DNA from: Candidatus Electrothrix sp. GW3-4
Lineage (GTDB): Bacteria > Desulfobacterota > Desulfobulbia > Desulfobulbales > Desulfobulbaceae
NCBI RefSeq assembly: GCF_037902255.1
Contig: NZ_CP147990.1
Span: 4,230,001 to 4,262,000 of the forward strand
DNA: 32,000 nucleotides
Reading direction: 5' to 3'
The notes under the pieces were generated by a model. That model saw only the letters and a program-made list of their open reading frames with translations, was not told the DNA's origin and made no database searches. This document shows positions 5,489-31,295 of this stretch, one piece after another (the first letter of the stretch is position 1; each line of letters opens with the position of its first letter). The translations under genes and the position numbers were made by a program.

Positions 5489-5557
5489 CAAGTCCTCGAG
5501 GCAGTTTTTATAACCAACCTACCAACAGAAAGAAACGCCCCGTTGGCAGGTTATAAT

Positions 5558-5767: not shown

Positions 5768-5825
5768 AGGGGAAGAAAAAGAAGAAATGGGAGAGAGGAA
5801 CTATATAATATAGTTAAGAAAAAGA

Positions 5826-7597: not shown

Positions 7598-7673
7598 AGA
7601 TATATTTACTTTGTTATTTTCTGATGTCAGGTTGATTAAGTTCGTGCCGAACCTCTGTAGAACAGCATCTTTT

Positions 7674-9783: not shown

Positions 9784-11144
9784 TGCAAAAGAAAGGAATG
9801 ACCGCCCGTGGCCTGGCCCTGGAGACCCTGGTGCAATGGACAGGCAGCGGCAAGCCGGTGCAAGGCTTTATCAATAGGATTATTCATGACTCGGGCCTGA
9901 AGAATGAGGAGCGTCAGCTGGCCGTGATGCTGGTGCTGGCCGTGTTGCGGGAGCAGGAATATCTTGATCTGCTTATCAGCAGCTTTTCCAAGACCAAGTT
10001 GCGCAAAATGAAGCCGCTGACCTTGGCTGCCCTGCGGATTGGGGTGGTGCAGATCTGCCGCCTGGAGCGTATCCCGGATTCAGCTGCGGTGAATGAGACG
10101 GTCAAGGCCCTGAAAAAGATGCGTCAGCCTGGCTGGCTCTGTAGTTTTGTCAACGGGACCCTGCGTAATATCGCACGAAGCAAGGAGAGCCTGCCAAGCC
10201 CGGAAGAGGCAGGCCCAGGAGGGACGCCGGTGCTCAATCATCCGGTCTGGCTGACCGAGCGTTGGCAGGAGCATTTTGGTCGGGAGCAGATGCAGGCGAT
10301 CTGCCGGGTGAATAATACGGAACCGGCACTCTGTCTTCAGGTCAATCAGGTGCGAACAGATCAAGAGACCCTGGCTGAGCAATTTTCAGAGCAGGGGATA
10401 CGAACCGAGCCGGGCAGCTTTGCTCTGGACAGTCTGATCCTCCAGGAGCAGCGGGGGGCAGTGACCGACTTACCCGGTTTTACTGAGGGCCTCTTTCAGG
10501 TCCAGGATCAGGCAGCGCGCCTGGCCTGTGAGCTTTTGAGACCCTTCAAGGAGCAAGGGCGGTACCTGGACGGCTGTGCAGGTTTAGGTGGCAAGACCTG
10601 CATCCTTGCCGCGCTGCTTCCTCAGGATGCCTCGCTTGTTGCGGTGGAGCCGGATCAGCGGCGCTCCCGCCTCTTGCAGGAGAATCTTCAGCGCCAGGGC
10701 CTGAGCGAGAAGGTAGAAACCGTGCAGCAGGGGTTGCAGGGCTTTGCTGCTGACGATGATCGCCTTTTTGACGGCATCTTTATTGATGCCCCCTGTTCCG
10801 GCACCGGGATCATTCGCAAGCATCCTGACATCCGCTGGAACCGGCAGCCTGAAGACCTTGTCAGCTCTCAGAAAACCCAGCTTGCATTATTGCAAACAGC
10901 GGCTACCTTGATTAAACCTGGTGGGGTACTCGTCTATGCCACCTGCTCCCTGGAGCCGGAGGAAAATCAGCAGGTGGTGGAGCAGTTTCTCACTACCAAC
11001 CCTGCCTTTGCACTGACTGATTGCCGGGATTTTCTGCCTGCCTCAGCTGCTTCCCTGGTGGATGCGCAGGGCTTTTTTGCACCGCTGCCCACAGAGGAGA
11101 TTGAGGGGTTCTTTGCAGCACGGTTAGTGCGGAGTGCATTATAA
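9780..11144 (+). CDS. rsmB: 16S rRNA (cytosine967-C5)-methyltransferase
   Basis: 454 aa: NusB-like N-terminal domain followed by FIDAPCSGTGIIRKHPDIRW and YATCSLEPEENQ (RsmB/Sun m5C methyltransferase motifs). ATG overlaps the rmuC stop. Confidence 0.9.
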   Translation: MMQKKGMTARGLALETLVQWTGSGKPVQGFINRIIHDSGLKNEERQLAVMLVLAVLREQEYLDLLISSFSKTKLRKMKPLTLAALRIGVVQICRLERIPDSAAVNETVKALKKMRQPGWLCSFVNGTLRNIARSKESLPSPEEAGPGGTPVLNHPVWLTERWQEHFGREQMQAICRVNNTEPALCLQVNQVRTDQETLAEQFSEQGIRTEPGSFALDSLILQEQRGAVTDLPGFTEGLFQVQDQAARLACELLRPFKEQGRYLDGCAGLGGKTCILAALLPQDASLVAVEPDQRRSRLLQENLQRQGLSEKVETVQQGLQGFAADDDRLFDGIFIDAPCSGTGIIRKHPDIRWNRQPEDLVSSQKTQLALLQTAATLIKPGGVLVYATCSLEPEENQQVVEQFLTTNPAFALTDCRDFLPASAASLVDAQGFFAPLPTEEIEGFFAARLVRSAL

Positions 11145-17340: not shown

Positions 17341-18070
17341 GTCGGCTTTCTCCCGTTATAAAAAAGTCGCAGGTCTCTAATGTAATGCCTCTATTATGCA
17401 AAGCAGCCATCACGATTTTTTTATTATAGGGATGGACTTGCTCATGGTTGATGTATTGGTCAATATTTATCCAGCGGGCTTCGATGATTTCCTGGATATC
17501 ACCGATCCTGATTGTTGTTGATAAGGGCCTGGCCTTGCAGACCAGATAGATATTAGATTCATTAAACTGACAGGGCGAGAAATACCCCATGGAAACGATG
17601 GAGTCCATCTGCACGGTTATTCCGGTCTCCTCGGCAACCTCCCGTGCAACAGCTTGGGAAATATTTTCCTCATTGTCTATGTAGCCGCCTGGAAGTTTAT
17701 ATGATTTGTAGATTCTATCTTTTACCACAAGCATATTATCGCCCTCGCGGACAAAGACGCCCACGCCGATGGTATGATTTGTGGGGGTGGGAATAAGAGG
17801 GTCCGAGATGACCTTTTTAACGAGGACGAGCTTTGTTTCGCTACAATCGTAAAATGTAAAATTCTGCTGTGTTAGGCAAGGGATATATTCTGATTTTTCG
17901 ATGGGCAAGGTCATCCAGATCAGTTTTTTATTTGGATGGTCAGCAATGATTTGGGCCAGTTTTTTCTCGAATGCTGCAGGAGGGAGCTTGAAGGCGGCAT
18001 CATCCAGGATTATGCCGCCATATTTGTCTTCCCTGTATGCAATCGCTGTGTGATCAATAAAAGGGTTCAT
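17324..18070 (-). CDS. NUDIX hydrolase with an N-terminal accessory domain
   Basis: Nudix box GGYIDNEENISQAVAREVAEETG. 248 aa. Confidence 0.85.
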   Translation of the reverse strand: MNPFIDHTAIAYREDKYGGIILDDAAFKLPPAAFEKKLAQIIADHPNKKLIWMTLPIEKSEYIPCLTQQNFTFYDCSETKLVLVKKVISDPLIPTPTNHTIGVGVFVREGDNMLVVKDRIYKSYKLPGGYIDNEENISQAVAREVAEETGITVQMDSIVSMGYFSPCQFNESNIYLVCKARPLSTTIRIGDIQEIIEARWINIDQYINHEQVHPYNKKIVMAALHNRGITLETCDFFITGESRHELFF

Positions 18071-18906
18071 GCTTTCCTGGCAATCACTGCAAATTCGCTG
18101 GATTTCTGATCATAAGGGCTGCCTGCAACGTCGGAATACAGCCCTTTGATGGAGAAGCCAGCCGCAACAAACTCGTTTTCAAGGTCTTCAGGGGTAAAAT
18201 GCTGAAACCAGTTGTAGACCTCTCTGGTGCGTTCAGGCTCAATGATTGTGTACTTATCAAGGATGACTTTCTCTTCATCGTATTTGAAGGTATTCACAAA
18301 ACCGTAATACTTGTTCGGTGACCAAAATCCGTTGAGTTGGTTCAGCTCATAGGTCGCGCTCTCTTCCCGTTGTTCGAACGCTGAGAGAGAGTTCACATCA
18401 AGCAGGACCGAGCCTCCCGGTTTGAGCATATTATGAAATTTGCTGAGAAGCACCTTGCGTTGGGTTGGGCTGAGGACGCAGAAATCACACATAATCATCA
18501 CAACAAGATCGAACTGCTCTTCCGCCTCAAATTCCAGGTAGTTCTGATTCAGATAGTTGATATTCAACTGTTCGCGGACTGCAACCTCTTTTGCATAGTC
18601 GATGGATCTCTTGGAGAAATCGATACCGGTCACTTGTGCGCCGTGCTTCGCCAAAGCTGTGGCATAGAGTCCCGGACCACAGCCGAAATCAGCGATCTTG
18701 GTGTTACTGCCGATCTTGAACTGCGCTGCGATCCATTCCACTGATCGCTTGATGAACTCCGCGTTTCGCGAAGAAACATCGATGTCCCCATTAAGATGGT
18801 ATGAAAGCATCTGCTTTGACGTATACTCATCTGTCCACAGATCACTTGCCGTGTAATACTGGAACGGTTCAGGGCGTTGGTTGATTTTCTCTAGTTCTTC
18901 AAACAT
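18067..18906 (-). CDS. Class I SAM-dependent methyltransferase
   Basis: Motif I IADFGCGPGLYA and post-I VTGIDFS. 279 aa. 4-nt overlap with the NUDIX gene. Confidence 0.85.
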   Translation of the reverse strand: MFEELEKINQRPEPFQYYTASDLWTDEYTSKQMLSYHLNGDIDVSSRNAEFIKRSVEWIAAQFKIGSNTKIADFGCGPGLYATALAKHGAQVTGIDFSKRSIDYAKEVAVREQLNINYLNQNYLEFEAEEQFDLVVMIMCDFCVLSPTQRKVLLSKFHNMLKPGGSVLLDVNSLSAFEQREESATYELNQLNGFWSPNKYYGFVNTFKYDEEKVILDKYTIIEPERTREVYNWFQHFTPEDLENEFVAAGFSIKGLYSDVAGSPYDQKSSEFAVIARKA

Positions 18907-18949
18907 GGTATTTCCTCGTTATTCCGCAGAACGCCGGGTTCAGCGGTGT

Positions 18950-19489
18950 TTAGTTGTCAACTGTACCGTTTTTCGGGCCGGTTGCTGTAAATCCTTCGTG
19001 AAAGATGACATTGCCCTGCGGTATGTTCCCGTCAAAGGAAAGAGCAAAGAACACTTCCTGCGGAACGCCCTCAAGAGCGAGATCGTCAACATTCTTAAAC
19101 CCGAATTGTCGGTAGTATTCCGGGTGCCCGACCAAGCAGCAGCCTTTCGCGTGAAGTGCTCGCAAGCGTGACAGCCCTTCCTGGATGAGTGCCTTGCCGA
19201 TCCCTTGGCGTTGAAAGTCCGGGAGCACGGAAACCGGGCCGAGTCCGTACCAGTCTGTGGTATCGTCCGATATGGTTACCGGAGAAAAGGCAATATGGCC
19301 TACAACACGGTCGTCTACCTCCGCAACCAATGAGATTGTCAGGGCATTGGCAGTTCGTAATGCCTCAATGATGAATTGTTCAGTGTGGTTGCTGATCTCC
19401 AGCGTCTCGAACGCTGCTTGCGTCACATCGGAGATGACTCTGTGGTCAGTCTTTTTTTCGTTTCTGATCAGGACGTTTGGTGATTTCAT
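18950..19489 (-). CDS. GNAT N-acetyltransferase (YhbS/COG3153-like)
   Basis: Acetyl-CoA motif QRQGIGKALI and VGHPEYYRQFGF. It is a paralogue-like relative of 28184..28729. Confidence 0.85.
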   Translation of the reverse strand: MKSPNVLIRNEKKTDHRVISDVTQAAFETLEISNHTEQFIIEALRTANALTISLVAEVDDRVVGHIAFSPVTISDDTTDWYGLGPVSVLPDFQRQGIGKALIQEGLSRLRALHAKGCCLVGHPEYYRQFGFKNVDDLALEGVPQEVFFALSFDGNIPQGNVIFHEGFTATGPKNGTVDN

Positions 19490-19640
19490 GAAAGAATCCT
19501 TTATTTTCTATAGCGTGGCTAACATAGAGCTAACCAGCCTGGGTATAGCCGTTGCATATGCCGCGAAATACCGACATTGGCAAAAAACACGAATGGTGGA
19601 CGGTCCGATTTAGTAACTGGTTATACATTTTTTATAAATA

Positions 19641-19895
19641 TCACCACTTACGCCATCTTAGTTTTGACTTGGTAAATTTCGGACAAATATTCCTCCTATG
19701 TTCCGAATTAGCCGAACACCATTGCCCACATCCTTGGTCTTTTCTGTCGTTCACAACAAATTCTCTACAGTTACGACAAGTCCTTTTAATATCATCTTTG
19801 AAAAACTCAACCATCATGCCACATTTTGGACAGGGTTTTTCAAAAATTGCTTCAAAACCCCATTCTTCAGTATTATTTCCTGAGCATCTTCTCAT
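19641..19895 (-). CDS. Small Cys-rich (zinc-ribbon-like) hypothetical protein
   Basis: 84 aa with CPKCG, CRNC, CGQWC and ICPKF. Confidence 0.45.
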   Translation of the reverse strand: MRRCSGNNTEEWGFEAIFEKPCPKCGMMVEFFKDDIKRTCRNCREFVVNDRKDQGCGQWCSANSEHRRNICPKFTKSKLRWRKW

Positions 19896-19940
19896 TGCAG
19901 CACCTTTTTTATCGGTTCATTTTATTTGTATAACATGATC

Positions 19941-19967
19941 AGTACCCAAGCAGAGCTTGGGTACCAG
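19941..19967 (+). repeat. REP-like single hairpin (right-hand unit only)
   Basis: agtacccaagcagagcttgggtaccag: 9-bp stem tacccaagc/gcttgggta with a 3-nt loop. It is identical in core to the right hairpin of the composite elements below. Confidence 0.8.
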
Positions 19968-19983
19968 TAAATAGTTACCTTAA

Positions 19984-20664
19984 TTATTTCATAGCTCTGC
20001 TAACCGGATTAAATCCCTTTGCAAAAAGCCAAATGGGCAATAGAAGGAGTTCAAACAAAGCACCAGGCACATATAGAATACCCCCTGTCCCTGTAGTATC
20101 AATTATCCCAAGAAGATCAAGAGGAGCACTTACAAATACCAACGTATACCCAAAAACACCTACCACGGAAATTATTCGGGGAATCAAACGTGTTTTGTAG
20201 AGTAAACAACAGAGTATCATGCTGGCAATACTTAGAATAATCATTGCCATCTGATAGCCAATATATCTGGCTTCCACAGCAACATTGGCTAAAATATGGA
20301 AGTAGGACGAGTCTGGGGAACCTGCCTTTATAAATTCCTGACTTAAAGTTAAAAGAAGAAAATAAACAATAGCTCCAATAAGAAGGAGTAAACATTCCAT
20401 TACTCTTGAACATACATAGGTAATTGCAATTATTCTACTATGCTTTTCCATGATTGGATAAAAGAGAACCGCAATACCAACAACTCCGAGAGACATGAAT
20501 AAAATTGAGAATGCTCCAATGTAAAATTGAGCTTCATTTGCATAATAATCAGAAAGAGATGCTTGGAGAATTGGTGCTACTGTGTAAGCGTCAATCATCC
20601 CAAAAATCATTGTGATGATGAACAATGCTCCCACAGCTTTTGCTATCTTATTTTCTGTACTCAT
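19984..20664 (-). CDS. DUF4386-like multi-pass membrane protein
   Basis: 226 aa with about 6 TM helices. The N-terminal KAVGALFIITMIFGM pattern resembles DUF4386. Confidence 0.6.
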   Translation of the reverse strand: MSTENKIAKAVGALFIITMIFGMIDAYTVAPILQASLSDYYANEAQFYIGAFSILFMSLGVVGIAVLFYPIMEKHSRIIAITYVCSRVMECLLLLIGAIVYFLLLTLSQEFIKAGSPDSSYFHILANVAVEARYIGYQMAMIILSIASMILCCLLYKTRLIPRIISVVGVFGYTLVFVSAPLDLLGIIDTTGTGGILYVPGALFELLLLPIWLFAKGFNPVSRAMK

Positions 20665-20700
20665 GCCTTTTCCTTTTTTTGCATAACGACTTGTTATCTC

Positions 20701-21096
20701 TTAATTTCTATAAGTATCTATATCAATACTTGCCTTAACTTTGTACAAAAACTCAATAACATCATCTTCAAAACCAATGATAGGTGTTGATTTTGTTTCG
20801 TCTGTAGTGATCCAGAGCACCACCTGTAAGTAAGCTTCAAGGTTGAATTTCTGTTTTGCTTCTATAATTTCTTTTGTATGGGGTTTTATGGTTTTTATAA
20901 GCGAAGAGGACATTTTGTAAATATCGACTATTTCCCCTTTCACTGTATCAGATGATAAATTCCAGTAAGATTTCTTGGGGATAGGATTGGCCTTTTTCTT
21001 GGCTTTCGATGGATTAATTCCGAGGAATTCAGTTAATTCTTTTGGGTCAAAATCATCGCCTATCAATCCAAAGTAAACTCTTCCTTCATTGCTCAT
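20701..21096 (-). CDS. DUF4279-like protein
   Basis: 131 aa. FGLIGDDFDPKELTEFLGINPSKA matches the DUF4279 N-terminal signature as I recall it. Confidence 0.6.
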   Translation of the reverse strand: MSNEGRVYFGLIGDDFDPKELTEFLGINPSKAKKKANPIPKKSYWNLSSDTVKGEIVDIYKMSSSLIKTIKPHTKEIIEAKQKFNLEAYLQVVLWITTDETKSTPIIGFEDDVIEFLYKVKASIDIDTYRN

Positions 21097-21110
21097 TATT
21101 TTATTTTTTT

Positions 21111-21220
21111 TTCCTGATTCCCAGGCTCCAGCTTGGGAATCCTTATTCCTGAAGCTTTGCTTCCCTTATGAAGCGGAGCTTCACGGCGTTAGTACCCAAG
21201 CAGAGCTTGGGCACCAGCAA
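21111..21220 (+). repeat. Composite REP/BIME-like element (three hairpins)
   Basis: ttcctgattcccaggctccagcttgggaat...gaagctttgcttcccttatgaagcggagcttcacggcgttagtacccaagcagagcttgggcaccagcaa. Confidence 0.9.
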
Positions 21221-21270
21221 AATCTCCATGCTATGGCAACAGTAGTTTGTGCCTTTGGTTGATATTACGG

Positions 21271-21792
21271 CTAAACACTTTCTAGTTTTTTCCCTAATGA
21301 TGGAGAATAAATAGTATAAACTTTCTGTTTCACTTCATTATCGTAGCTCAATCCGGCTCTTATATCATAAGGTGCAATAAGTTCCTTAAAAGCGGACTCA
21401 ATATTCTCAATGCCCCATTCAGTATCAATGTATCTGCACGGGAATTCTGAATGCGGATTTGGTGTATGTAAATATACAGCATCGTCATAACCATTTTTTT
21501 CATAGAGGCAGAGCCAAATCTGAAAAGGTATTTCCAGCAGATTTGTCTCATGAACGATCCGATGAAACATAGCGAAAAGTGCTTGTATATGCTTTCTTCT
21601 GTTTTTCCAACTCTTATTCGATGATCCGTTCTGATCAATATGACTATGCCAGTAATTAAACCAATGATCTGGTTCTGCTATGATTGAAAAGTTCTCGGCT
21701 TTGCTCATAAGCTGCCTGTAATATCTCCCCAGACCTCTAACTTTTCTTTTAGGCAAGAGGCTGGGAGTAATTTTGAAGAGTTCTTGATTCAT
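21271..21792 (-). CDS. Hypothetical protein
   Basis: 173-aa ORF flanked by REP-like elements on both sides. No motif recognised. Confidence 0.55.
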   Translation of the reverse strand: MNQELFKITPSLLPKRKVRGLGRYYRQLMSKAENFSIIAEPDHWFNYWHSHIDQNGSSNKSWKNRRKHIQALFAMFHRIVHETNLLEIPFQIWLCLYEKNGYDDAVYLHTPNPHSEFPCRYIDTEWGIENIESAFKELIAPYDIRAGLSYDNEVKQKVYTIYSPSLGKKLESV

Positions 21793-21817
21793 ATTTTAAT
21801 ACTCCCATCAGACGTTT

Positions 21818-21951
21818 GTTTCCTGGTTTCCTTTCCTAGTTTTCCTAGTTCCCAAGCTCCAGCTTGGGAACCCTTGTTCCTGAAGCTCTGCTTCCCCTAT
21901 GAAGCCGAGCTTCACGGCGTTAGTACCCAAGCAGAGCTTGGGCACCAGCAA
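21818..21951 (+). repeat. Composite REP/BIME-like element (full length, with extra tttcct(g/a)gtt mini-repeats at the left end)
   Basis: Hairpin 1 is ttcccaagct-cc-agcttgggaa. The central hairpin is gaagctc-t-gcttc-ccctat-gaagc-c-gagcttc. Hairpin 3 is gtacccaagc-aga-gcttgggcac, followed by cagcaa. Confidence 0.9.
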
Positions 21952-21990
21952 TCCAGTAAAAGAAGCTCCGAGTCTTTATTCCATTTCCTT

Positions 21991-22524
21991 TCACCATTGA
22001 CAAACCACCTCAATCAATCCCGGCTTCCCGGCATAATTGACCGCACTGGAATACCGCCAATGCTCGGCAGCCTCAACATATCCTCGTTTCACCGGATTCT
22101 GGTGGATATACTCCAGTTTCTGCCGCATTACAGCCTCGTTTTCAATGTATTGCGGGTGAAAACCCTCTTCCCATACCTGATATTCGGATTCCCGCTTATG
22201 GTGTCGTTTGAAAAGAGCGAACAGATGCAGCAGTCGCTCCGCTTTGACCTCATGCAGATGGTCGATAATCTTTCGGGCTGTATATGATTTAAAGCGTTGC
22301 ATATCTTTGCTCAGATTCGGTGACTGTGCTATCAGGTGAAGATGGTTTTCCAGAATAATATAACCGTACAGCCTGAAATTGTGTTTTTCCTGCAAATATT
22401 GCCAGCTATCAAGGACGATCTGTACTGTTTCCGGTCGAGTGAAGACCGGGAGCCAGTTGTTCACAGTTGAAGTCATGAAATACGGAGCGTCAGGCGAGAA
22501 GATATGGTATCGGCTGCGCGGCAT
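21991..22524 (-). CDS. REP-associated tyrosine transposase (RAYT; IS200/IS605-like Y1 HUH transposase)
   Basis: I place the start at MPRSRYH (ATG 22524) with AGGAGG 5 nt upstream. The track's extra 56 residues are a translation of the REP element. HUH motif ENHLHLI and catalytic Tyr region LEYIHQNPVKRGYV. REP-like elements flank it on both sides. Confidence 0.85.
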   Translation of the reverse strand: MPRSRYHIFSPDAPYFMTSTVNNWLPVFTRPETVQIVLDSWQYLQEKHNFRLYGYIILENHLHLIAQSPNLSKDMQRFKSYTARKIIDHLHEVKAERLLHLFALFKRHHKRESEYQVWEEGFHPQYIENEAVMRQKLEYIHQNPVKRGYVEAAEHWRYSSAVNYAGKPGLIEVVCQW

Positions 22525-22545
22525 TTCATCCTCCTGTATTTCTTT

Positions 22546-22587
22546 TTCTGGTTTCTGGTTCCCAAGCTCCAGCTTGGGCACCAGCAA
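22546..22587 (+). repeat. Short REP-like element (left arm of hairpin 1 fused to right arm of hairpin 3)
   Basis: ttctggtttctggttcccaagctccagcttgggcaccagcaa. The central ~65 bp of the composite element are missing. Confidence 0.85.
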
Positions 22588-22612
22588 AAATGTGCTCCGC
22601 TTAAAACCTTCG

Positions 22613-23008
22613 TTAGTCCTTGTAATACTGCTTAAATTCATCTGAAGGATCACGGTCTGAGTAGATATAAACGGAGTTCCCGATAGGATCAATTACAGAA
22701 AACCCTCTGTCCCCCCAAGGGTGGTCTTCCAATGGCATTGCTGCTTGCAGACCTGCTTCTGTCAATCTGGAATGTTCTGCATCAACATCATCAACCTTGA
22801 AATTGAGCATTACGCCCGCACCTCCAAATACTGGCATATTTTCTTGTGGTTGCATAAATTGAATCGTTGGACCGCCTTCACCGATGCGCAGATTGACATA
22901 CCAGCCACAATCAAAAATAGCTTTTGCCGAGAAATGCTGTTCATAGAATTCTCGACACGCATCTACATCTTTTGTACAGAAACATGTTGATAGCTCATTT
23001 GTCTTCAT
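22613..23008 (-). CDS. VOC/glyoxalase/bleomycin-resistance family protein
   Basis: 131 aa. Typical VOC pattern (DVDACREFYEQHF..., FKVDDVDAEHSRL, PWGDRGFSVIDPIGN). Confidence 0.8.
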   Translation of the reverse strand: MKTNELSTCFCTKDVDACREFYEQHFSAKAIFDCGWYVNLRIGEGGPTIQFMQPQENMPVFGGAGVMLNFKVDDVDAEHSRLTEAGLQAAMPLEDHPWGDRGFSVIDPIGNSVYIYSDRDPSDEFKQYYKD

Positions 23009-23079
23009 AGTGTCTCCTTTATTGGGCTAACAGTGTTGATAAGTGGAAATTTCCATCCGGTTGACAGCAACCGCTTCAA

Positions 23080-23934
23080 TCACACCACCGCAACAGCAAA
23101 AAACTCCACCCCGTGTCGATCTGCCCCCTTGATCAATTCCGGTGCCTCTCTCCAGCCATGCTGCTGTAGAAACGATGCAAGCTCTTCAGGCCGGATACTC
23201 CATAACCACGGCTCGCCGACAACTTTCTGCAACCAAAGCATCAGCCCTGTCCATCGCCCGACGTATGGCCGACCATCTTCGCCGCTGGGAATGTAGGAAA
23301 AGGCGATGCGCGATCCCTGACCGACACTTGCCGCGCATTGCCTGAACAAGGATTGCACAGCTTCTGTCGGTAAGTACATGACAAGCCCTTCGGCAAGGAT
23401 AACGCTTTGCGCCGTTACGTCCCAATTCGCATTTGTTCTCAGCACATCAGACAGTTCCCTCTCACCCAAATCCTCAGCGATCAGGTGAAGGTTCTCACTT
23501 GCTCCTAACGCCTCAACCCCTTTCTGTTTCAGAGCAGATGTGGCCGGATGATCAATCTCGAAAAAACGTACCCCCGAAAACTCCGGTGCCAATCGACAAC
23601 ACAGGGTATCGTATCCTGCTCCGAGGACAAGAATCTGGGTCGCTCCGCTACTGATACTGTCCCGTACCTGCTGTTCACAGAACGCCTTGCGAAAGGCGAA
23701 GGCCTCAAACTGGCCCGGCAGCATCCAGTCAAAGGCTTCATACACAGCAATCATTCTGGGAGAGCGGGCCAACCGGACTGTCCTTTCCCCGGCAGCACCT
23801 GATGCAACAAGTAATTGTGCAGTGGCATCAACAATCCCGTGTGGAAGAACCGTGTCCATTCCGGGTTGTGAGCCGAGAGTGACAATGTTCAGGGCGACCT
23901 TGCGGGCCGTCATGCTCGGTTTGTTTTTATCCAT
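23080..23934 (-). CDS. SAM-dependent O-methyltransferase, LCMT/TcmP-like (COG3315 type)
   Basis: QILVLGAGYDT motif in a 284-aa GC-rich gene. Confidence 0.8.
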   Translation of the reverse strand: MDKNKPSMTARKVALNIVTLGSQPGMDTVLPHGIVDATAQLLVASGAAGERTVRLARSPRMIAVYEAFDWMLPGQFEAFAFRKAFCEQQVRDSISSGATQILVLGAGYDTLCCRLAPEFSGVRFFEIDHPATSALKQKGVEALGASENLHLIAEDLGERELSDVLRTNANWDVTAQSVILAEGLVMYLPTEAVQSLFRQCAASVGQGSRIAFSYIPSGEDGRPYVGRWTGLMLWLQKVVGEPWLWSIRPEELASFLQQHGWREAPELIKGADRHGVEFFAVAVV

Positions 23935-24763
23935 TGTTATTCTTGTTGAATCTTATTTTGACAAGTTTCACCATGTTTCTGAATTTCGGAGAAAGACGAA
24001 CAAGCAGTCTGACGAATATTTTTTGCCTGTTTTTATGATAGTCAAACATATTCCATTCATCTTCTACGATGATATCAGAATGTAATAATTTCAAATCGTC
24101 TGTATCGGAAATACCCCAGGTGAAGCTGATATCTTTGTTTTTCGCTTTGTTCTTAACATGATAGTTCACCAGTTTGGTATGGAATACTTCACAAATCATT
24201 ATAGATGAAGGAAAATTATTGTTTATTTCCCGCAGCAAATTTTTTATTTCATCTTCATGAAGATACATCAAGAGTCCTTCAGCAATAAACAGATAATTAT
24301 ACGAAGCATCTTTTTCGATATCATCAATCCATGAATAATCAAGAACTGACTTTCCTATAGATGTATGTTTCTCCGTATCGCTATAGAATTTCCTTCTGAA
24401 TTCAATAGCCTCATGCAGATCAATATCGTACCAAAATTTAATTTTATCCGAATTCATTCGACTAAAACGGGTATCCAAACCTGCACCGAGATTCACTATC
24501 ACAGGGTTTTCCGTCTTATTTATAAATTCAACAATCTGACTGTCCAATATTTTTGTCCTGACCGAGACTAAAAATTGTCCACTCGTATTCTTGTTGAAAT
24601 AAGAAAAGTCATGATCAAGCAAGTCTATCATTTCAACCGCTTTTGTATCGGTGATGATTGCGTCTGAACGCAAGGTCTCGGAGGCTTTAAAATAAAGCGG
24701 AGCAAACATGGATTCAAATATCGGATTTTTATCAATCAAATCTTGAGGATTAATTTTGTTCAT
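23927..24763 (-). CDS. SAM-dependent O-methyltransferase, LCMT/TcmP-like (second, AT-rich copy)
   Basis: VIVNLGAGLDTRFSRM motif in a 278-aa gene. Its stop overlaps the downstream methyltransferase start by 8 nt (ATGGATAA). Confidence 0.8.
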   Translation of the reverse strand: MNKINPQDLIDKNPIFESMFAPLYFKASETLRSDAIITDTKAVEMIDLLDHDFSYFNKNTSGQFLVSVRTKILDSQIVEFINKTENPVIVNLGAGLDTRFSRMNSDKIKFWYDIDLHEAIEFRRKFYSDTEKHTSIGKSVLDYSWIDDIEKDASYNYLFIAEGLLMYLHEDEIKNLLREINNNFPSSIMICEVFHTKLVNYHVKNKAKNKDISFTWGISDTDDLKLLHSDIIVEDEWNMFDYHKNRQKIFVRLLVRLSPKFRNMVKLVKIRFNKNNNG

Positions 24764-24827
24764 AGGACGCTCTTTTTGAGGTGTATACGTGATACTGTGT
24801 CAGTCTGAAAAAGAATACGGAACCAGA

Positions 24828-25394
24828 TTATCTGATAATTTTTACGATCTCCGCTTCCTTTCTCTTGGGCACAGGAGGAATATTTTCCGGGTAGCCTAGG
24901 ATGATCGGAGCCACAATGGTGCAGTTGTCCGGTATCGCCAGTTCCCTGAGCATCTCCGGGTCATGTATCTCGGTGCCGAGGTTCACCCAGCATGTTCCCA
25001 GACCTCTGGAGCTTGCCGCCAGCATGAAATAACCGGCTGCCAGGGCACAATCGACAGAGAGATTCTTTAGATGAGAAAGTCCGAGAATCATCACCAGACA
25101 CGGTGCGTTGTAGAAGACATTGAACGATTCATTCTCCAGCATCCCTTGGTATTTCTTGGCATAATCATCGGGATTGGCGGCAATGCGGGCCAGGATGTTT
25201 TTCTTGCTCTCGTCCGAGATTTTCTGCAGCATCTCTCTGTTGTTGACGATGATAAATTTCCACGGCTGCTCATTACCAGCATTCGGGGCAAGCGTGCTTT
25301 CCCTGATCATCTCTTGGATAAGCTCGACCGCAACAGGTTTGTCCTGGTATTTTCTTACGGAGCGTCGGTTTTTTAATAGTTCTTCATAGGTCAT
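24828..25394 (-). CDS. Nitroreductase family protein
   Basis: I place the start at MTYEELLKNRRSVRKY (ATG 25394, AGAGG upstream). Motifs: RRSVRKY, PNAGNEQPWKF and a C-terminal GYP region. Confidence 0.85.
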   Translation of the reverse strand: MTYEELLKNRRSVRKYQDKPVAVELIQEMIRESTLAPNAGNEQPWKFIIVNNREMLQKISDESKKNILARIAANPDDYAKKYQGMLENESFNVFYNAPCLVMILGLSHLKNLSVDCALAAGYFMLAASSRGLGTCWVNLGTEIHDPEMLRELAIPDNCTIVAPIILGYPENIPPVPKRKEAEIVKIIR

Positions 25395-25440
25395 TGCGTT
25401 GTCTACCTCTCTGTTACATTCGTTTACTAACAACTTTTGC

Positions 25441-25692
25441 ACGTCTGAATGCTCCGTTCAAACGTGTAAATACAGTGTTCAGACATATAAAAGCTCTCAA
25501 GATACGTTTGAATCCTCTTGTTCAACATGCAAATGCTTCAAACATACGTTTGTTTACTCTTGAGCAACGTGTAAACGCTATGTTCAAACATGTAAATGCT
25601 CCTGACAGACGAGTGAACAGAGCTTTTGCTTGTTTGAAAGCTTCTGACATATGTTTGTTTGCTCTTGAGCAACGTGTAAATATTTACTGATT
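25441..25692. repeat. Array 2: twelve strictly phased 21-bp units with a 105-bp (5-unit) higher-order periodicity
   Basis: Units start every 21 bp from 25441 with no indel. Consensus is ACGTnT(G/A)AAtnCT.... Unit 6 (acgtttgtttactcttgagca) is close to unit 11 (atgtttgtttgctcttgagca), and units 2, 7 and 12 all begin acgtgtaaa. Confidence 0.9.
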
Positions 25693-25707
25693 CCCAAGCA
25701 GGAAGTA

Positions 25708-26952
25708 TCATGCCTGTTGAACGCTTATTTTTCTGCTCTCATTTTTCATCAGCACAGAACCTGCCATAATGCAGAGAGATATCAGCAAGGAAAGAGAGCA
25801 GGATACTGTAATGCCGTGCCAACCATAGGAAAGCCAGACCGGTCCTAAAAGGATTGATGAGAGACTCCCGCCTCCGATGCAAAATAAAATGTACAGCGAA
25901 GAGGCACTGCCGATTGATTCTCGCGGTACACGTTGACCTATGAGCAGAAACACTGTGGGCTGGCAGGAATAGACGCTCAGAAAAAGCAGCAACAGACCAA
26001 CCACAGTCAAGAAAATTGATTGAAACCATCCCATAAGCTGGAAAGACAGCAAGGACACAACTAAGCTGGGAAATATAATCTTCAACACGCCTGTTTTCTG
26101 GGAAATGCTTCCAGCAAAAGGGGCAATGACAGCGGTAATTCCTGCAAAGCTTATCCAGCCTATTTCACCTGATGAGAAATGAAAAGGCGGGGCAAGCAGC
26201 CTATAAGTCAAGAAGGTAACCATACCGAGAAATCCAAAATAGAGGGTGAATCCAACCAGCAGTAACGATAATATTTCTGATTTGAGCATGAGGCGCATTG
26301 CATTTTTATACAGCTCGGATAAGCGTGTGTTGTTTCCGGTCTGCGTATTTTTCTTCTCAACAAGTAAAAGCTGTGTGACCGCTGAGAGGAAAAGGAGAAC
26401 AGCTGAAACAATCCGAAAGGAGATTTGCCAGCCCACGGCTTCTGTCAATATTCCCATGAAAACTCTGCCAAAAATGACGCCCAATGTTCCAGATGCAACG
26501 ATAAGCCCAACATACACCCCGATTTTATTTCTAGGAGAAATTCTGGCTACGTGAGGAAACATTGATGCCGGGATCAATGCCGCGCAAATTCCCATCAATG
26601 CCATAGCGAGTATAAATAGGCCGAAATTCGGAGTATACGATGCACCGATAACTGTCATAGCCAGAAGCACCAGCCCGGTAACTGCGATTTTGGGCAGGTT
26701 GAATTTATCGGCAGCCGGACCGAGAAAGAAAAATGCAGCAGCATAACTCAATGAAATGATACTGAATGAGAAACGCGCCTGCGTAACATCAATACTGAAC
26801 GAGGTCGCAAGTTCTGAGAATATTGACTGCGTCATAAAAACCGTTGAAACTGCAAGCAGGTTAATTGTACAGGCAATCAATATCTTGAGCAGTTCAGCAG
26901 CAGTACCGCTTTCAGCTACTCTTTCCTGAAGTGATTGTGACAATGCTCTCAT
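25708..26952 (-). CDS. MFS transporter
   Basis: 414 aa with about 12 TM helices. MFS-like loop motif GPAADKFNLPK between TM2 and TM3. Confidence 0.85.
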   Translation of the reverse strand: MRALSQSLQERVAESGTAAELLKILIACTINLLAVSTVFMTQSIFSELATSFSIDVTQARFSFSIISLSYAAAFFFLGPAADKFNLPKIAVTGLVLLAMTVIGASYTPNFGLFILAMALMGICAALIPASMFPHVARISPRNKIGVYVGLIVASGTLGVIFGRVFMGILTEAVGWQISFRIVSAVLLFLSAVTQLLLVEKKNTQTGNNTRLSELYKNAMRLMLKSEILSLLLVGFTLYFGFLGMVTFLTYRLLAPPFHFSSGEIGWISFAGITAVIAPFAGSISQKTGVLKIIFPSLVVSLLSFQLMGWFQSIFLTVVGLLLLFLSVYSCQPTVFLLIGQRVPRESIGSASSLYILFCIGGGSLSSILLGPVWLSYGWHGITVSCSLSLLISLCIMAGSVLMKNESRKISVQQA

Positions 26953-26984
26953 GGTTTCAAGTCTCTATTTGCAACTACAAAAAG

Positions 26985-27805
26985 TTAAAACAATTTTCCA
27001 TTTTTACTATGCTGCATGATCAATTTTCTGAACATCTCCACCATGCCCCTGCCCAAGGCATAAATCACTTCGGGGTCTATGTTTTTCGAGGCCGCTGTAT
27101 CAAAGAAAATATTCAATTTGGATTCAAACGGTTCTTCCGGTTCCCAGTAACTGATCAAAAAGGTATCCCAGGGAGCGGATATAAAAGAAGTGAACGATCA
27201 GCACTGTTTGTTCCCTGGAGTTCTTTGGCCTCGAATAATTCGAGTAACTCAAAAAACAACGCATTATGCGTGTCTGCTAAACGGCACATCTCCTGTTCGC
27301 AGCGGTGTGAAAAAAAATTCTCCCATTCCTTGGCCCCGGTTATGTCTCTGAAAGGTATCCATACACCGGCTTCATCCTCTGTTCTGTTGCTGACCAGATA
27401 TTTAAGAACCGGTCCATATACCCAATTATTTATATGGCATTCCGAACTCATCATGCCCTGCTCATCAATCCAAAACTCCTTGCCAAGACACCGAACCCCG
27501 ACGCGGTTTTCTTTAACCGGAAGATCATGTTCACTCGCAATATCCCTGAGACCTTTCTCGACAACCTGCTGTCTCAGCGTATCAAGTTCTTTTTCACCCT
27601 GTTCATTTGATAACTTCTTATGGACAATGCCACCGGAAAGCAGAGTGATTGTTTCTTCTGCGAGCTGTGGGCAATCTCTAAGCTGTTTCTGCCCCTGAAT
27701 GACCGCGACAGCAAAGGCCATGCAGGAGGGTAAGAGGCATTGACGGCAGTTCGACTGCTCAAGATGCTTGTACAGGTCCAAGGGGTTGCTGATTGATGAC
27801 ATCAA
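26985..27805 (-). pseudogene. DUF3786 protein with an N-terminal Fe-S (RACo-type C-x2-C-x4-C...C) domain, interrupted by a frameshift at a T5 run
   Basis: The ORF 27155..27805 (NCRQCLLPSCMAFA...C) ends at ...YPLPGIPF-TGA. The -1 frame continues as LISYWEPEEPFESKLNIFFDTAASKNIDPEVIYALGRGMVEMF... to TAA at 26985. One extra T in the CCTTTTTGA run (plus-strand A-run 27157-27161) would fuse the two frames. Confidence 0.7.
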
Positions 27806-27829
27806 TACGTTCTCCGCAGAATAAAAATG

Positions 27830-27895
27830 TTCCTGGTTTTCTGGCTCCTACACACCGGCTTGGGAACCCCTGTTCTTGAAGCTCTGCTTGCTTGG
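27830..27895 (+). repeat. Degenerate REP/BIME-like element
   Basis: ttcctggttttctggctcctacacaccggcttgggaacccctgttcttgaagctctgcttgcttgg keeps the left flank, the right arm of hairpin 1 and the start of the central hairpin. Confidence 0.65.
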
Positions 27896-28180
27896 TTACA
27901 GAGATTCTTTCTCCATTTCTTTTGCAAGCATCCGTTCTTTGAGAGATGGCCCTCCAGAAAAAACAAAGACGTTCAAAGCATGAAAAAACACCCCAATGCC
28001 CCAACCAATGAGCGGCCAAATGAACCAAAAATGTTCGGGAGCTGTGCTTACATTAATAACTATAAGCAAAATATTTACAGCGATGTAGACAGCGAGATGA
28101 ATGTACAATCCAAACTTTGCCTCTGCTCTTTTTTTAGCCCTTTGATAAGCTTCCTGATTTTCCATAATCTCTTTCTCCAA
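27896..28180 (-). CDS. 2TM-domain protein
   Basis: 94 aa. KFGLYIHLAVYIAVNILLIVIN...WFIWPLIGWGIGVFFHAL fits the 2TM domain pattern. Confidence 0.65.
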   Translation of the reverse strand: MEKEIMENQEAYQRAKKRAEAKFGLYIHLAVYIAVNILLIVINVSTAPEHFWFIWPLIGWGIGVFFHALNVFVFSGGPSLKERMLAKEMEKESL

Positions 28181-28183
28181 AAA

Positions 28184-28729
28184 CTATTCTCTCCAGTGCT
28201 GAGGCTCATTGAGAACCTCTGAACATTGAACTGTCCCTGAATGTCTTTTCAAGACATCATCGCGTAACTCTTGAACCATCCACGCTTCTGCGTGCTCTTC
28301 CGGTATAGGATATGGTGCGTCAAAACCTTGTGCTCCAGCAGGGATAAAACCGCAACGTGGATAGTAGGTCGGGTGACCAAGAACAAAAACCAACTCTGTT
28401 CCAGCTTCTTCAAGCAATCGTAAGCCTTCGTTAATGAGTTCTTCCCCAATGCCTTTCTTTTGTTTATCCGGTAGGATGGCTAATGGTGCCAAGATTTGAG
28501 CAGAGAGTATTTTTTCTGCTTTTGTAACGACAACTTTTGTGAATAAAACATGACCAACGAGTTTGTTGTTCTCAACAGCTACTAATGACAAGAGTGGCAT
28601 TGCTGTTTCGTCATCAAATAAGTCATCAACAAGTTTGGCAATCTCAGCCCCTTTGTCATTACCAAATGCACGGTTGTGGATATTCAGTATTTCTTTACGC
28701 TCTGGTTCTGTAGATTTTCTTATTTTCAA
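28184..28729 (-). CDS. GNAT N-acetyltransferase (YhbS/COG3153-like)
   Basis: TTG start with AGGA 7 nt upstream. QKKGIGEELINEG and LGHPTYYPRCGF. Confidence 0.85.
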   Translation of the reverse strand: MKIRKSTEPERKEILNIHNRAFGNDKGAEIAKLVDDLFDDETAMPLLSLVAVENNKLVGHVLFTKVVVTKAEKILSAQILAPLAILPDKQKKGIGEELINEGLRLLEEAGTELVFVLGHPTYYPRCGFIPAGAQGFDAPYPIPEEHAEAWMVQELRDDVLKRHSGTVQCSEVLNEPQHWRE

Positions 28730-28751
28730 GCTATATCCTTTTTATCAACGT

Positions 28752-28847
28752 TTGTTCTGGTTCCCAAGCTCCAGCTTGGGAATCCTTGCTCCTGAAGCTC
28801 TGCTTCCCCTATGAAGCGGAGCTTCACGGCGTTATGGGCACCAGCGA
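28752..28847 (+). repeat. Composite REP/BIME-like element with the left arm of hairpin 3 deleted
   Basis: ttgttctggttcccaagctccagcttgggaatcc...gaagcggagcttcacggcgtta-tgggcaccagcgac. Confidence 0.85.
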
Positions 28848-28953
28848 CAATCTTTGGTTGCTCAGTCTTCATGATTTTCCCTTTTGTTACGTATTGAGTT
28901 CATGATGTTTTTAGGATACCCTGTATGTCCTTTCTGAATTGATTGCTATGCAT

Positions 28954-29379
28954 CTAATCACCTCCGCATATGAGATGATTGACTGAAATTATGTTTTTCT
29001 CAGCATTGTATGTGAAGGACGCTCTAGCACCCAATATTATTATTGATTGATCTCTCCACTGCGGTGGAGATATGCACAATATTTCACCTTTCGAGTTATG
29101 TATTTTGCACCCCTGTTTTAGTGCAAACAGTACTTCGCTTATACATTCATGATTATTGCTGTAAACTTTTTCTATGCAGCCAATGCCCTCTTCGCCTGGG
29201 CCTAAGCCACACTTGGTGGTTTCAGTTTCGTACTTCTTCATTTGCTGCCAGTCGCGGCCCTGGAACTCATGAATGAATTGAGCATACCTCATGGTAAATT
29301 CACCTCTGTATTGAGGCGGGTTTTCTTTAGCTTGCAGCGTGAGTGGAAGAAGTATCACCACTAAAAGTAGTCTGAACAT
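28954..29379 (-). CDS. Secreted Cys-containing hypothetical protein
   Basis: 141 aa with signal peptide MFRLLLVVILLPLTLQA and 8 Cys. No family recognised. Confidence 0.55.
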   Translation of the reverse strand: MFRLLLVVILLPLTLQAKENPPQYRGEFTMRYAQFIHEFQGRDWQQMKKYETETTKCGLGPGEEGIGCIEKVYSNNHECISEVLFALKQGCKIHNSKGEILCISPPQWRDQSIIILGARASFTYNAEKNIISVNHLICGGD

Positions 29380-29421
29380 ATGTTCCTTTTATGCATAATT
29401 TCTCGCATTAGCGGCACATTG

Positions 29422-29532
29422 TTTTCCTGGTTCCCAAGCTCCAGCTTGGGAACATTGTTCCAGAAGCTCTGCTTCCCCTATGAAGCCGAGCTTCACGGCG
29501 TTAGTCCCCAAGCAGAGCTTGGGCACCAGCAA
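29422..29532 (+). repeat. Composite REP/BIME-like element (full length)
   Basis: ttttcctggttcccaagctccagcttgggaacattgttccagaagctctgcttcccctatgaagccgagcttcacggcgttagtccccaagcagagcttgggcaccagcaa. Confidence 0.9.
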
Positions 29533-29633
29533 ACGATTGATCTTGAAAATCTCTGTCTAGCCTTGCCGTTTCAGAATCATACTGACTGTTTTTCTCCAAT
29601 CAACACCGAATCTTGCTTTATTCTCAGGATAAA

Positions 29634-31295
29634 TAGAGCATCCTCAAAAAGCTAACCTCTCATACAGGCAATACTGCAAGACTTGCCTTGGCATTTGTTC
29701 AAAGAACGCCAAAAATCGAGCGATAATATGATTCAGCTGGCTGCGTAAAAGTAAAAACCGTGAAAGATATAAATTTTCAAGCTGTTCCTGCAACTTCCTG
29801 AGCAGAACCATCAGATTCATGACCAGGAAGATACAGTTGATCCATGCTTCAGAGGTTCTCTGAAGTTTTGCCCGGATGTAGTTGAGTCGGTAGCCGTTTT
29901 TTCCTTGGCCAAATTTCCCCTCAATGGGGATCCGTTCTCGACTATCCCGAATTCGTTGTGCTTTCAGTTCCCGAAGACGTTCTTTGTTTTCTTCTGTCTC
30001 TTTCGGGGACCTGCCCAATCGTTTACCACCAAATCGAATACCTTTCTCTTTGAGATATTTACGGTTTTCTCTTGTTCCGTAAATCTGATCAGCCAGTACG
30101 ACTGCCGGATAGTAACCATTCCGGCGCTTGTAACTCTCCACTTGCTCACGCAAATCCGTGCCTTCGTTGAAGGCATCCCAACCAATATGATCGACAAAAG
30201 CCAAACCATCGACCATGCTCACGCTGAGTTTGGCACCGAACTCCACATTTTTACCTGCTTTCCCACGAACTATCGGTCGTACATGAGGTTGGGCAATGGA
30301 AACAATTCGGTCATCGCAGCGTCGTTTTCGTTTTTTATACATCTCATCCTGCTGGCGATACACATGCTGAATGATCCAATACTGTCGTTGTTGCTGATGG
30401 GGAAGTGGAAAAGGTGCCGTTTCAACATTGTCAAGCAACTCATCAATATATCGCAGATTTCTTCGGATGTACTGTAATTGCTGCCGAAGTCCGCGCCGCA
30501 GAATTTTTCGGCCTGGTTTCTTTTTCTTAGCCAGATTCAGGTAGTTTTTACGGGCAAGTCTCCGATATGTTCTGGGCTTTTTGGCGTAGTCACTCTGTTT
30601 GTACAGATCATCAATCAGCTGCTCGGAAATCTCACGAGCTTCGTTGAGTAAACTCAGATCAGTCGGGTAACGAATCGCTTGCTCAGCAACCGTTGCATCG
30701 ACAAGCATTTTTCCCTTATTTTCAACGGGCTCTTCCTGACTCTCATCCTCTTTTTCGTCTTCATTTGCCGTACTTTTCTTTGAGAGAGCAAGTTTTTCCA
30801 AAATCACTTCTTCAAAAGCAGAAAAAACATCTTTTCCCATGCGCTTGCGAATTTCAACAAACAGGCTGGGAGCTAGAGGTCGCTTGTCTTGAAAACAAGA
30901 AAATCCAACAAAATATTGAAGATAGGGATTCTCCTGGATCTGAAGTACGGTTTCTTCATCACTGAGCGTCAACTTGTGCTTAATGATTAACGCGCCGATC
31001 ACCAATCTGGCATCTTTGGCTGGTCGTCCTTGATGCGGGTCCAAAGTTCGATAATATCTGATGGCGAACTCATCCCACGGAATAACTTTATGCCATTTGA
31101 TCCATCTGTTTTCAGGGTTCAGTTTACCTCCAAACGGAAGGCTGAATCCTTCAAGTGTAAGCTGTCTGTCACTGGTGTACCTGATCATGTGCATGCCTTA
31201 TGAGGGGGTGAACGTCAAAAACATGCATATTTTACAATATTTTTACAACTTTTTCATTTAAAATCAGTGCACTGAGGCTTTTTAAGGGCAATCTA
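29634..31295 (-). mobile_element. IS5/IS1182-type insertion sequence (boundaries approximate)
   Basis: Single transposase ORF. Candidate imperfect terminal inverted repeats are TAGAgcatCCTcAAAAAGC (29634-29652) and GCTTTTTaAGGgcaaTCTA (31277-31295), matching 14 of 19. No clear target-site duplication is visible. Confidence 0.45.
29644..31194 (-). CDS. IS5/IS1182-family DDE transposase
   Basis: 516 aa. N-terminal InsH/DUF772-like region (LEGFSLPFGGKLNPENRWIKW...DEFA...GRPAKDARLVIGALIIKH) and a C-terminal DDE region (VDATV..., DHIGWDAFNEG..., LADQIYGTRENR). Confidence 0.85.
   Translation of the reverse strand: MHMIRYTSDRQLTLEGFSLPFGGKLNPENRWIKWHKVIPWDEFAIRYYRTLDPHQGRPAKDARLVIGALIIKHKLTLSDEETVLQIQENPYLQYFVGFSCFQDKRPLAPSLFVEIRKRMGKDVFSAFEEVILEKLALSKKSTANEDEKEDESQEEPVENKGKMLVDATVAEQAIRYPTDLSLLNEAREISEQLIDDLYKQSDYAKKPRTYRRLARKNYLNLAKKKKPGRKILRRGLRQQLQYIRRNLRYIDELLDNVETAPFPLPHQQQRQYWIIQHVYRQQDEMYKKRKRRCDDRIVSIAQPHVRPIVRGKAGKNVEFGAKLSVSMVDGLAFVDHIGWDAFNEGTDLREQVESYKRRNGYYPAVVLADQIYGTRENRKYLKEKGIRFGGKRLGRSPKETEENKERLRELKAQRIRDSRERIPIEGKFGQGKNGYRLNYIRAKLQRTSEAWINCIFLVMNLMVLLRKLQEQLENLYLSRFLLLRSQLNHIIARFLAFFEQMPRQVLQYCLYERLAF

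Follow-up and report, generated by a model that had tools for sequence, protein, structure and literature searches.

A diverged, in-phase 21-bp tandem array between MFS transporter and nitroreductase genes of Candidatus Electrothrix sp. GW3-4, and the case for a small heptad-repeat reading frame on its minus strand

The cable bacterium Candidatus Electrothrix sp. GW3-4 carries a tandem array of twelve 21-bp units, here called array 2, in the spacer between a gene for a major facilitator superfamily (MFS) transporter and one for a nitroreductase-family protein. We examined it within a 32,000-nucleotide stretch of contig NZ_CP147990.1 (the window, whose coordinates are used throughout) and compared it with related loci in Logan contigs and metagenome-assembled genomes (MAGs), chief among them Desulfobulbaceae MAG S24.Bin023, a close relative denoted L003 below. 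The original prediction, made from the letters alone, had described an intergenic repeat akin to a second array in the window, array 1, and had pointed to an open frame on the plus strand. We lean, by a small measure, towards a different reading: array 2 would be a small, lineage-specific open reading frame (ORF) on the minus strand, made of heptad repeats and grown by minisatellite expansion. The features of the spacer and its two flanking genes are as follows, from the upstream gene to the downstream one; REP stands for repetitive extragenic palindromic and SD for Shine-Dalgarno.

25708..26952, minus strand: MFS transporter, the upstream gene (Pfam MFS_1, E=9e-40)
25687..25707, minus strand: truncated 3'-end relic of a dispersed REP-like element (..CTTGGGAAYCAG), adjoining the distal end of the array (alignment)
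25538..25711, minus strand: ORF1, candidate frame of 57 aa plus TGA, MILPAWESVNIYTLLKSKQTYVRSFQTSKSSVHSSVRSIYMFEHSVYTLLKSKQTYV (translation; called as a gene in Logan contig L001)
25437..25688, minus strand: array 2 proper, twelve 21-bp (7-codon) units, register W0-W11 (autocorrelation, unit matrix, register table against L003, per-column information content)
25620..25638, plus strand: inverted unit core, 84% complementary to 25583-25601 (repeat search)
25589..25603, minus strand: internal AGGAG-N7-ATG, an SD-like motif and start codon within one unit (read from the sequence; the unit is present twice in L003)
25538..25540, minus strand: in-frame TGA splitting the repeat ORF in this strain (the orthologous L003 codon is TGG)
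25427..25528, minus strand: ORF2, candidate frame of 33 aa, MLNKRIQTYLESFYMSEHCIYTFERSIQTCKSC and stop, in the same frame as ORF1 (translation)
25395..25436, minus strand: degenerate 13th unit (25416-25436) and nitroreductase leader with SD AGAGAGGT (25395-25415; register table against L003)
24828..25394, minus strand: nitroreductase-family protein WP_339135789.1 of Ca. Electrothrix sp. GW3-4, the downstream gene (Pfam; cluster members)

The units are strongly diverged, at about 50-60% identity, yet strictly in phase. Self-match of the array at lags of 21, 42, 63, 84 and 105 bp is 0.45, 0.53, 0.53, 0.48 and 0.63, compared with 0.264 +/- 0.028 at lag 21 in 2000 mononucleotide shuffles, among which the top value at any lag was 0.454; this bears out the twelve units first placed at 25441-25692, a register that describes the same array as ours with an offset of 4 nt. 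A sliding scan of the 32 kb for 21/42/63 periodicity finds two places only, array 2 and array 1; Tandem Repeats Finder (TRF) did not report array 2 in the window. Per-column information content gives a sense-strand unit consensus with a 13-nt core, AGCATTYAnAYGT, and an 8-nt variable stretch. The array starts 16 bp after the MFS stop (25708) and lies 47 bp before the nitroreductase ATG (25394), as the original prediction had it, and the minus-strand 21-nt register extends further, through the 13th unit and the SD-bearing leader, to that ATG; one or two degenerate units are thus added to the twelve clear ones.

Within the array, the match of 19 in 21 seen earlier between units 6 and 11 recurs in our unit matrix; the likeness of units 2, 7 and 12 stands only in part (16, 12 and 11 of 21). 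The array had also been described as free of indels over 252 bp. Net phase is indeed preserved, but a gapped alignment of the window's two 105-bp blocks favours a compensated pair of 1-nt indels; with that pair included, phase is kept over 13-17 units, a block of 105 bp being 35 codons. The proposed 105-bp super-repeat is similarly mixed in the window, where the two blocks are just 65% identical and the self-match at lag 147 nearly equals that at lag 105. In L003, however, TRF reports a period of 105 with 2.2 copies and 86% match, which proves 105 bp to be a genuine duplication unit.

Arrays identical to that of the window occur in Logan contigs from SRR28154588-90. L003, whose nitroreductase is 96.8% identical to ours, has an orthologous array that is ~95% identical and has extra distal units, i.e., one more 105-bp block; two independent assemblies, L199 and L200, are base-identical to L003 in the array region. 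Counted as rows of units, the series is 13 in the window, 17 in L003, and roughly 3 in Ca. E. scaldis (CP138355.1, contig L197), where about three unit-like segments lie between the end of a REP element and the conserved leader—these proto-units show an 8-nt gap relative to the window and have stops in every frame. Part of the stretch 25395..25436 is ancestral and is also present in E. scaldis and E. gigas. Neither Ca. E. gigas nor strain YB6 has an array: their homology to the window ends 13-38 bp upstream of the nitroreductase ATG. In L008, a MAG that is more remotely related, ~35 bp separate the MFS gene from the nitroreductase gene. Since the array is absent or nearly so in other species and E. 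scaldis has proto-units, we take it to be young, lineage-specific, and grown from a few proto-units. Orthologous spacers without the array, which the original prediction had named, together with unchanged expression of the neighbouring genes, as an observation that would speak against it, are found in these other species; the spacer of L003 has it.

Such a distribution would also suit a non-coding minisatellite that slippage or unequal recombination had generated between the MFS and nitroreductase genes, in a spacer that is transcribed, and that is either neutral or serves only as spacer or leader. Lineage specificity (no array in E. gigas and YB6, a ~35-bp spacer in L008, three proto-units in E. 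scaldis) and copy number that differs between strains are both in its favour, and any codon pattern would then be a statistical or gene-conversion artefact. We consider this explanation unlikely, though it has to be taken seriously and, together with a cis-acting array, is the main rival; what bears on it most is the behaviour of the minus-strand frame.

That 21 equals 3 x 7 had been offered as a hint of heptad coding, and the hint is supported, though on the minus strand. A sense frame open over the whole array is present in L003, where it runs for 130 codons (2935-3327), a sequence that two independent assemblies bear out; the TGA divides the frame in the window, and in E. scaldis it is broken. 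The TGA is identical in the independent assemblies L001 and L188, and the window frame reads, in order, MILPAWESVNIYTLLKSKQTYVRSFQTSKSSVHSSVRSIYMFEHSVYTLLKSKQTYV, TGA, SIC, MLNKRIQTYLESFYMSEHCIYTFERSIQTCKSC, and stop. The start codon of ORF1 and the stop of the MFS gene overlap as ATGA, the ATG of ORF2 lies 9 nt past the ORF1 TGA, and 32 nt separate the end of ORF2 from the nitroreductase ATG. The array ORF of L003 is in one reading frame with the 141-aa gene upstream of it (2482-2907), and the TAA of that gene is the only interruption of an open stretch that runs through the REP element.

The heptads read, for example, VRSIYMF, EHSVYTL, and LKSKQTY; their third position is nearly invariant as Ser, their fourth is I/V/F, and their seventh is F/L/Y. 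The predicted product is basic (pI 9.4-9.8) and about 20% Ser; example peptides from it are SIYMFEHSVYTLLK, SSVHSSVR, and SFQTSK, with IQTYLESFYMSEHCIYTFER for ORF2. An AlphaFold2 single-sequence model of ORF1 predicts one continuous helix over residues 5-55 at a mean pLDDT (predicted local distance difference test) of 83. The product is thus predicted to be a long amphipathic helix of coiled-coil type, basic and Ser-rich.

The evidence that carries the minus-strand reading is the pattern of recent substitutions, which we compared between window and L003 orthologues and between two 105-bp blocks of L003, X (3000-3104) and Y (3105-3209). X and Y differ at 13 sites; in the sense frame, third codon positions account for 10 of these, and 10 are synonymous (P=0.0016); the other two minus-strand frames have 2 and 1 synonymous. 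Pooling both comparisons into 21 non-redundant parsimony events gives 13 synonymous changes and 8 non-synonymous ones in the sense frame, where 5.6 synonymous would be expected—none of 3000 position-randomised simulations reached 13. Third codon positions take 14 of the 21 events (P=0.0018), which are spread over every one of the unit's seven third-position columns. Apart from the sense frame, a signal appears only in the antisense frame with the same wobble columns, where stops abound. Two synonymous changes near the end of ORF2 can be assigned to the window lineage by polarising with E. scaldis. Between window and L003 the array has diverged by 5.0% (14/281) and the third positions of the nitroreductase gene by 16.4% (31/189; Fisher P=5e-5); a lower figure for the array is what a coding reading predicts, in which most of its sites would be non-synonymous.

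These results count against a non-coding minisatellite, for which neither the period-3, synonymous bias of the 21 recent events nor a divergence about three times slower than that of adjacent third codon positions would be expected. The bias persists when it is set against the spectrum of paralogue differences: by our estimate from the block A/B frequencies, P is about 0.014 for the excess at third positions and about 2e-4 for that of synonymous changes.

They also dispose of the plus-strand frame. The original prediction was right that, in the window, no frame but the plus-strand one at 25394-25690 stays open through the whole array, and it had put this 98-codon ORF (RLNAPFK, RVNTVFR ...) forward as possibly coding. 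As a coding frame we regard it as rejected for practical purposes: the coding signal lies on the minus strand, shared with both neighbouring genes, and only 3 of the 21 events are synonymous in the plus-strand frame against 18 that are not (P=0.99). In L003 that frame meets a stop within the array. Further, it has no ATG, its only start being a TTG that overlaps the nitroreductase start in antisense, and among 5.8 billion proteins none had even three 5-residue words in common with it.

Several observations weigh against the minus-strand reading. The sense frame is interrupted by a TGA in the window, and its N-terminus differs between window and L003, being partly REP-derived. Gene callers made no call at the ORF in L188 and L199; overall, three of the four assemblies with gene calls that we examined (L188, L199, L200) list no gene in the spacer. 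The codon log-likelihood ratio is -0.19 bits per codon in the window and -0.11 in L003; genes of the window score +0.20 +/- 0.08 in frame and about -0.5 out of frame, and both figures lie between these. The product is an orphan: the 130-aa L003 query had no match at E<=0.01 among 5.8 billion proteins, the 57-aa ORF matched only itself among 1.84 billion representative proteins, and the sense ORF had no match in Pfam or PDB. Older divergence shows no codon bias, with 9 of 35 differences between blocks A and B in the window synonymous where 8.2 are expected; differences between E. scaldis and the window are mostly non-synonymous, as read from the alignment, and per-column conservation among units has no clear period of 3. 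Finally, the statistical case consists of 21 events in two lineages, some possibly linked by gene conversion.

An ORF that is an orphan, has unusual codon usage, and is stopped short in the window, along with old paralogue divergence that is not codon-structured, is what the non-coding minisatellite would lead one to expect. That explanation also fits the lack of significant RNA structure on the sense strand (z = -1.85) and of an Rfam match: folding z-scores of -1.85 and -2.24 are not compelling, and Rfam 15 gave no match at the gathering threshold in the window and none at E<=1 over 25300-25800. The third-position and synonymous bias, and with it the protein-level purifying selection that it suggests, appears in recent changes only and not in old ones. 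Recent constraint that is missing from the older divergence fits a young ORF selected after expansion of the array; because the case rests on 21 events, we prefer the heptad-repeat ORF by a modest margin of confidence only.

The same unit structure invites a reading at the DNA level, in which about 12 phased 13-bp cores would form an iteron- or operator-like array, bound cooperatively by a protein that would control either local DNA structure or expression of the nitroreductase gene. Such sites would be consistent with the unit's conserved core of 13 nt and variable spacer of 8 nt, and with a unit length of 21 bp, equal to two helical turns; in both arrays the A/T and AA/TT signals are strongest at the 10.5- and 4.2-bp harmonics, and one inverted unit stands among the direct ones. 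If array 1 is related, its opposite orientation to its downstream gene would fit a role of DNA better than one of RNA or protein. Yet no gene for a DNA-binding, Rep, ParR, omega, or Par protein is found among the neighbours, there is no plasmid or phage similarity, and the core is not found as isolated sites, with 2 occurrences outside the array in the window where 1.25 are expected. Moreover, ~6 of 10 window-L003 events fall in the 13-nt core against 6.2 expected, so the core is not spared and substitutions follow codon positions instead. We think an iteron-like array improbable.

A third alternative keeps the translation and drops the protein: ribosomes would pass from the MFS stop through ORF1 and ORF2 as a translated spacer or chain of upstream ORFs, coupling translation of both genes, and the peptide would have no role of its own. 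The ATGA overlap, the short step from the ORF1 stop to the ORF2 ATG, and the end of ORF2 close to the nitroreductase ATG, beside the SD, all suit this arrangement, as does a spacer in which neither a terminator nor a sigma-70 promoter is predicted on the minus strand. Selection for an open frame removes stops, however, and would not enrich synonymous changes, and in L003 the upstream gene is a different one that has no ATGA coupling. To this reading, too, we give a low probability.

Array 1 (5558-5767) consists of about 10 units of 21 bp between minus-strand genes, with TRF periods of 21, 42, and 84. The two arrays share the 21-bp period, the A/T harmonic spectrum, a GAGGCATTY / GRAGCATTY word, a minus-strand intergenic slot, and lineage specificity; in array 1, unlike array 2, our own count, which has low power, reveals no period of 3 among the sites that vary between the 42-bp copies. 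Homologues of the gene downstream of array 1, including that of Electrothrix sp. MAN1_4, have no array upstream, so array 1 also appears to be lineage-specific. The kinship proposed between the arrays was not confirmed in the form first given, and the link is weak: profile similarity is no better than in column-permuted controls (p=0.12), and the core of array 2 has no match in array 1 at <=2 mismatches. The best local alignment is nominally significant (p=0.012-0.024); it pairs the plus strand of array 1 with the minus strand of array 2, so that the two run in opposite senses with respect to the genes beside them, and by our reading their codon phases differ. The earlier remark that relative orientation is ambiguous was right.

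In the data covered here we found no support for a shared, dispersed intergenic family: the motif is not dispersed in the window and was not found in JGI metagenomes, plasmids, or phages. A JGI metagenome scan with YWGRAGCATTTRCATGTTKRAMMA returned four non-periodic chance matches, and blastn of the spacer against plasmids and phages returned none. A skeleton pattern of five GNDTTY words was specific in local data and unspecific in IMG/VR (>120 matches), and was dropped. In the 9 kb beyond the left end of the window there is no further 21-bp array.

Some other observations concern the surroundings of array 1. Its plus-strand frame is open for ~60 codons (MFKTRHSKLHMRHLKLKT...), and a perfect 17-bp palindrome, AACTATATAATATAGTT, lies beside it at 5799-5815, just past which the Logan contigs L190 and L191 begin. 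An AAA_21/ABC-type ATPase is encoded at 6488-8110 (minus strand), with best matches to candidate anti-phage defence proteins (PADLOC HEC-01A 2e-27; AbiLi; MADS3-like); it is followed by two small proteins (5944-6495 and 5039-5491) that have no match in Pfam, NCBIfam, or PADLOC, and array 1 lies between them. In the same strain, 9 kb left of the window, L190 carries a 23-bp tandem repeat at 7589-7662 with 3.2 copies of a hairpin-forming unit, TCATACGCCCCGTATGACGAGGG.

The distal end of array 2 adjoins the relic of a REP-like element, and in L003 and E. scaldis the same junction is occupied by a more complete REP copy. Derivation of the array from the REP element was considered and rejected, given a local score of 9.0 compared with 8.6 +/- 1.2 in shuffles (p=0.49); the array merely abuts the REP end. 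The full element is ~115 bp long, is dispersed, and has four short hairpins: CCCAAGC..GCTTGGG, GAAGC..GCTTC twice, and TTCCCAAGCT..AGCTTGGGAA. Its copies are located as follows.

Window: 21106-21217, 21839-21948, 28753-28834, 29422-29532, and a partial copy at 27837-27889
L003: 2331-2440 and 2922-2994
L197: about 9905-9950

All window copies are on one strand and flank small accessory genes; the element is also found at the breakpoints of rearrangements between window and L003. An integron attC identity was rejected, the consensus having neither R''/R' core sites nor a single long hairpin. The elements are REP-like, and one copy is adjoined by a gene for a REP-associated tyrosine transposase (RAYT) at 21991-22692 (minus strand; NCBIfam NF047646, 109.8 bits against a cutoff of 80), which is probably the enzyme that mobilises them. 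Upstream of the REP element and proto-units in E. scaldis, L197 9762-9860 holds four copies, ~23 bp apart, of the inverted repeat CAAAATA-N4-TATTTTG, including a perfect palindrome of 18 bp (CAAAATACATGTATTTTG); the set looks like an operator array.

Besides the two flanking genes, the neighbours of array 2 include LCM methyltransferases, DUF3786, and GNAT genes. The module of nitroreductase and LCM methyltransferase has a different context in each Electrothrix genome examined (window ~17300-29600 compared with L002-L006, L197, and L199); strain YB6 has it three times, with identical flanks in two copies, and L003 has neither the window's MFS-to-GNAT segment nor the first LCM gene. The region ~17300-29600 of the window is a REP- and insertion sequence-rich variable island with nearly all genes on one strand. 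At 29644-31194 (minus strand) there is an insertion-sequence DDE transposase (DDE_Tnp_1_2 / DUF772), whose exact protein is absent from the assembly collection, as is that of the window's last ORF. A 1-nt deletion at window coordinate 26352 splits the MFS gene of L001 (SRR28154590) into ORFs of 247 and 171 aa; the gene is intact in the window and L188 (SRR28154589), and the deletion may be either a strain variant or an assembly error.

Bringing these strands together, the heptad-repeat ORF may have arisen as follows. A few proto-units would have lain between the REP element and the nitroreductase leader, and in-register tandem duplication, latest in 105-bp (35-codon) blocks, would have multiplied them, each 21-bp unit encoding one heptad. 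In the window, the result would be a 57-aa ORF translationally coupled to the MFS gene through the ATGA, and a 33-aa ORF ending near the ribosome-binding site of the nitroreductase gene. The ORF would be co-transcribed with its neighbours and translated, and the protein itself, beyond mere translation, may be what selection acts on. Two cable-bacteria papers searched for expression data gave none for Electrothrix GW3-4, and literature searches on tandem or intergenic repeats of cable bacteria gave nothing relevant.

A bolder version, which we put forward tentatively and think rather doubtful, is that the locus records de novo gene birth from a minisatellite in three stages across one genus. 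The first stage, with no units, would be seen in E. gigas and YB6; the second, with ~3 frame-broken proto-units by the REP element, in E. scaldis; and the third, with 13-17 in-phase heptads, in GW3-4 and L003, where the units would be under purifying selection and the window allele would carry a nonsense codon. Constraint in recent substitutions only, and not in the older divergence, is what de novo birth would predict.

If the ORF is real, an apparently intergenic repeat of a cable bacterium would be an unannotated orphan micro-protein. It would offer an unusually clear bacterial case of a coding sequence made by in-phase 21-bp expansion, and since sister species preserve the intermediates, gene birth from tandem repeats could be studied directly. 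If it is not, the locus would be an ordinary strain-variable minisatellite of little consequence. In practice, the locus shows that a 21-bp array whose units have diverged yet stay in phase calls for a test of codon-structured substitution, on each strand, before it is labelled regulatory.

Three known systems offer points of comparison. Plasmid iterons and type II centromeres include the RepA iterons and the ~20-bp tandem ParR sites of pSK41 parC; array 2 resembles them in its direct tandem repeats of about two helical turns, in its conserved core with variable spacer, and in its place upstream of a gene. It differs in being chromosomal, in having no Rep or ParR gene nearby, in its codon-position substitutions, and in the lack of plasmid or phage similarity. 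Bacterial variable-number tandem repeats (VNTRs), the loci used in multiple-locus VNTR analysis (MLVA), are closer in some respects: array 2 is likewise lineage-specific, varies in copy number between close strains, and has a local origin beside a REP element. Unlike VNTRs, its units are ~50-60% identical yet in phase, and its recent changes are biased towards synonymy in one frame; the expected variation in copy number is present, and the expected absence of coding constraint is not seen for recent changes.

Streptococcal M proteins provide the third comparison. Their tandem sequence repeats encode heptad-repeat coiled coils, and M24 has blocks of 35 residues, i.e., five heptads or 105 bp. 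Array 2 differs from M proteins in the very small size of its ORF (57-130 codons), in its lack of a signal peptide, anchor, non-repeat domain, or homologue, in its place inside an operon spacer, and in the stop that interrupts it in this strain. The likenesses to these coding minisatellites are a unit that is a multiple of 21 bp, heptads with a/d hydrophobic positions, a predicted long helix, five-heptad blocks duplicated in register, and a copy number that varies between strains. The locus would thus work like a coding minisatellite for a heptad-repeat helical protein, one that belongs to no described protein family.

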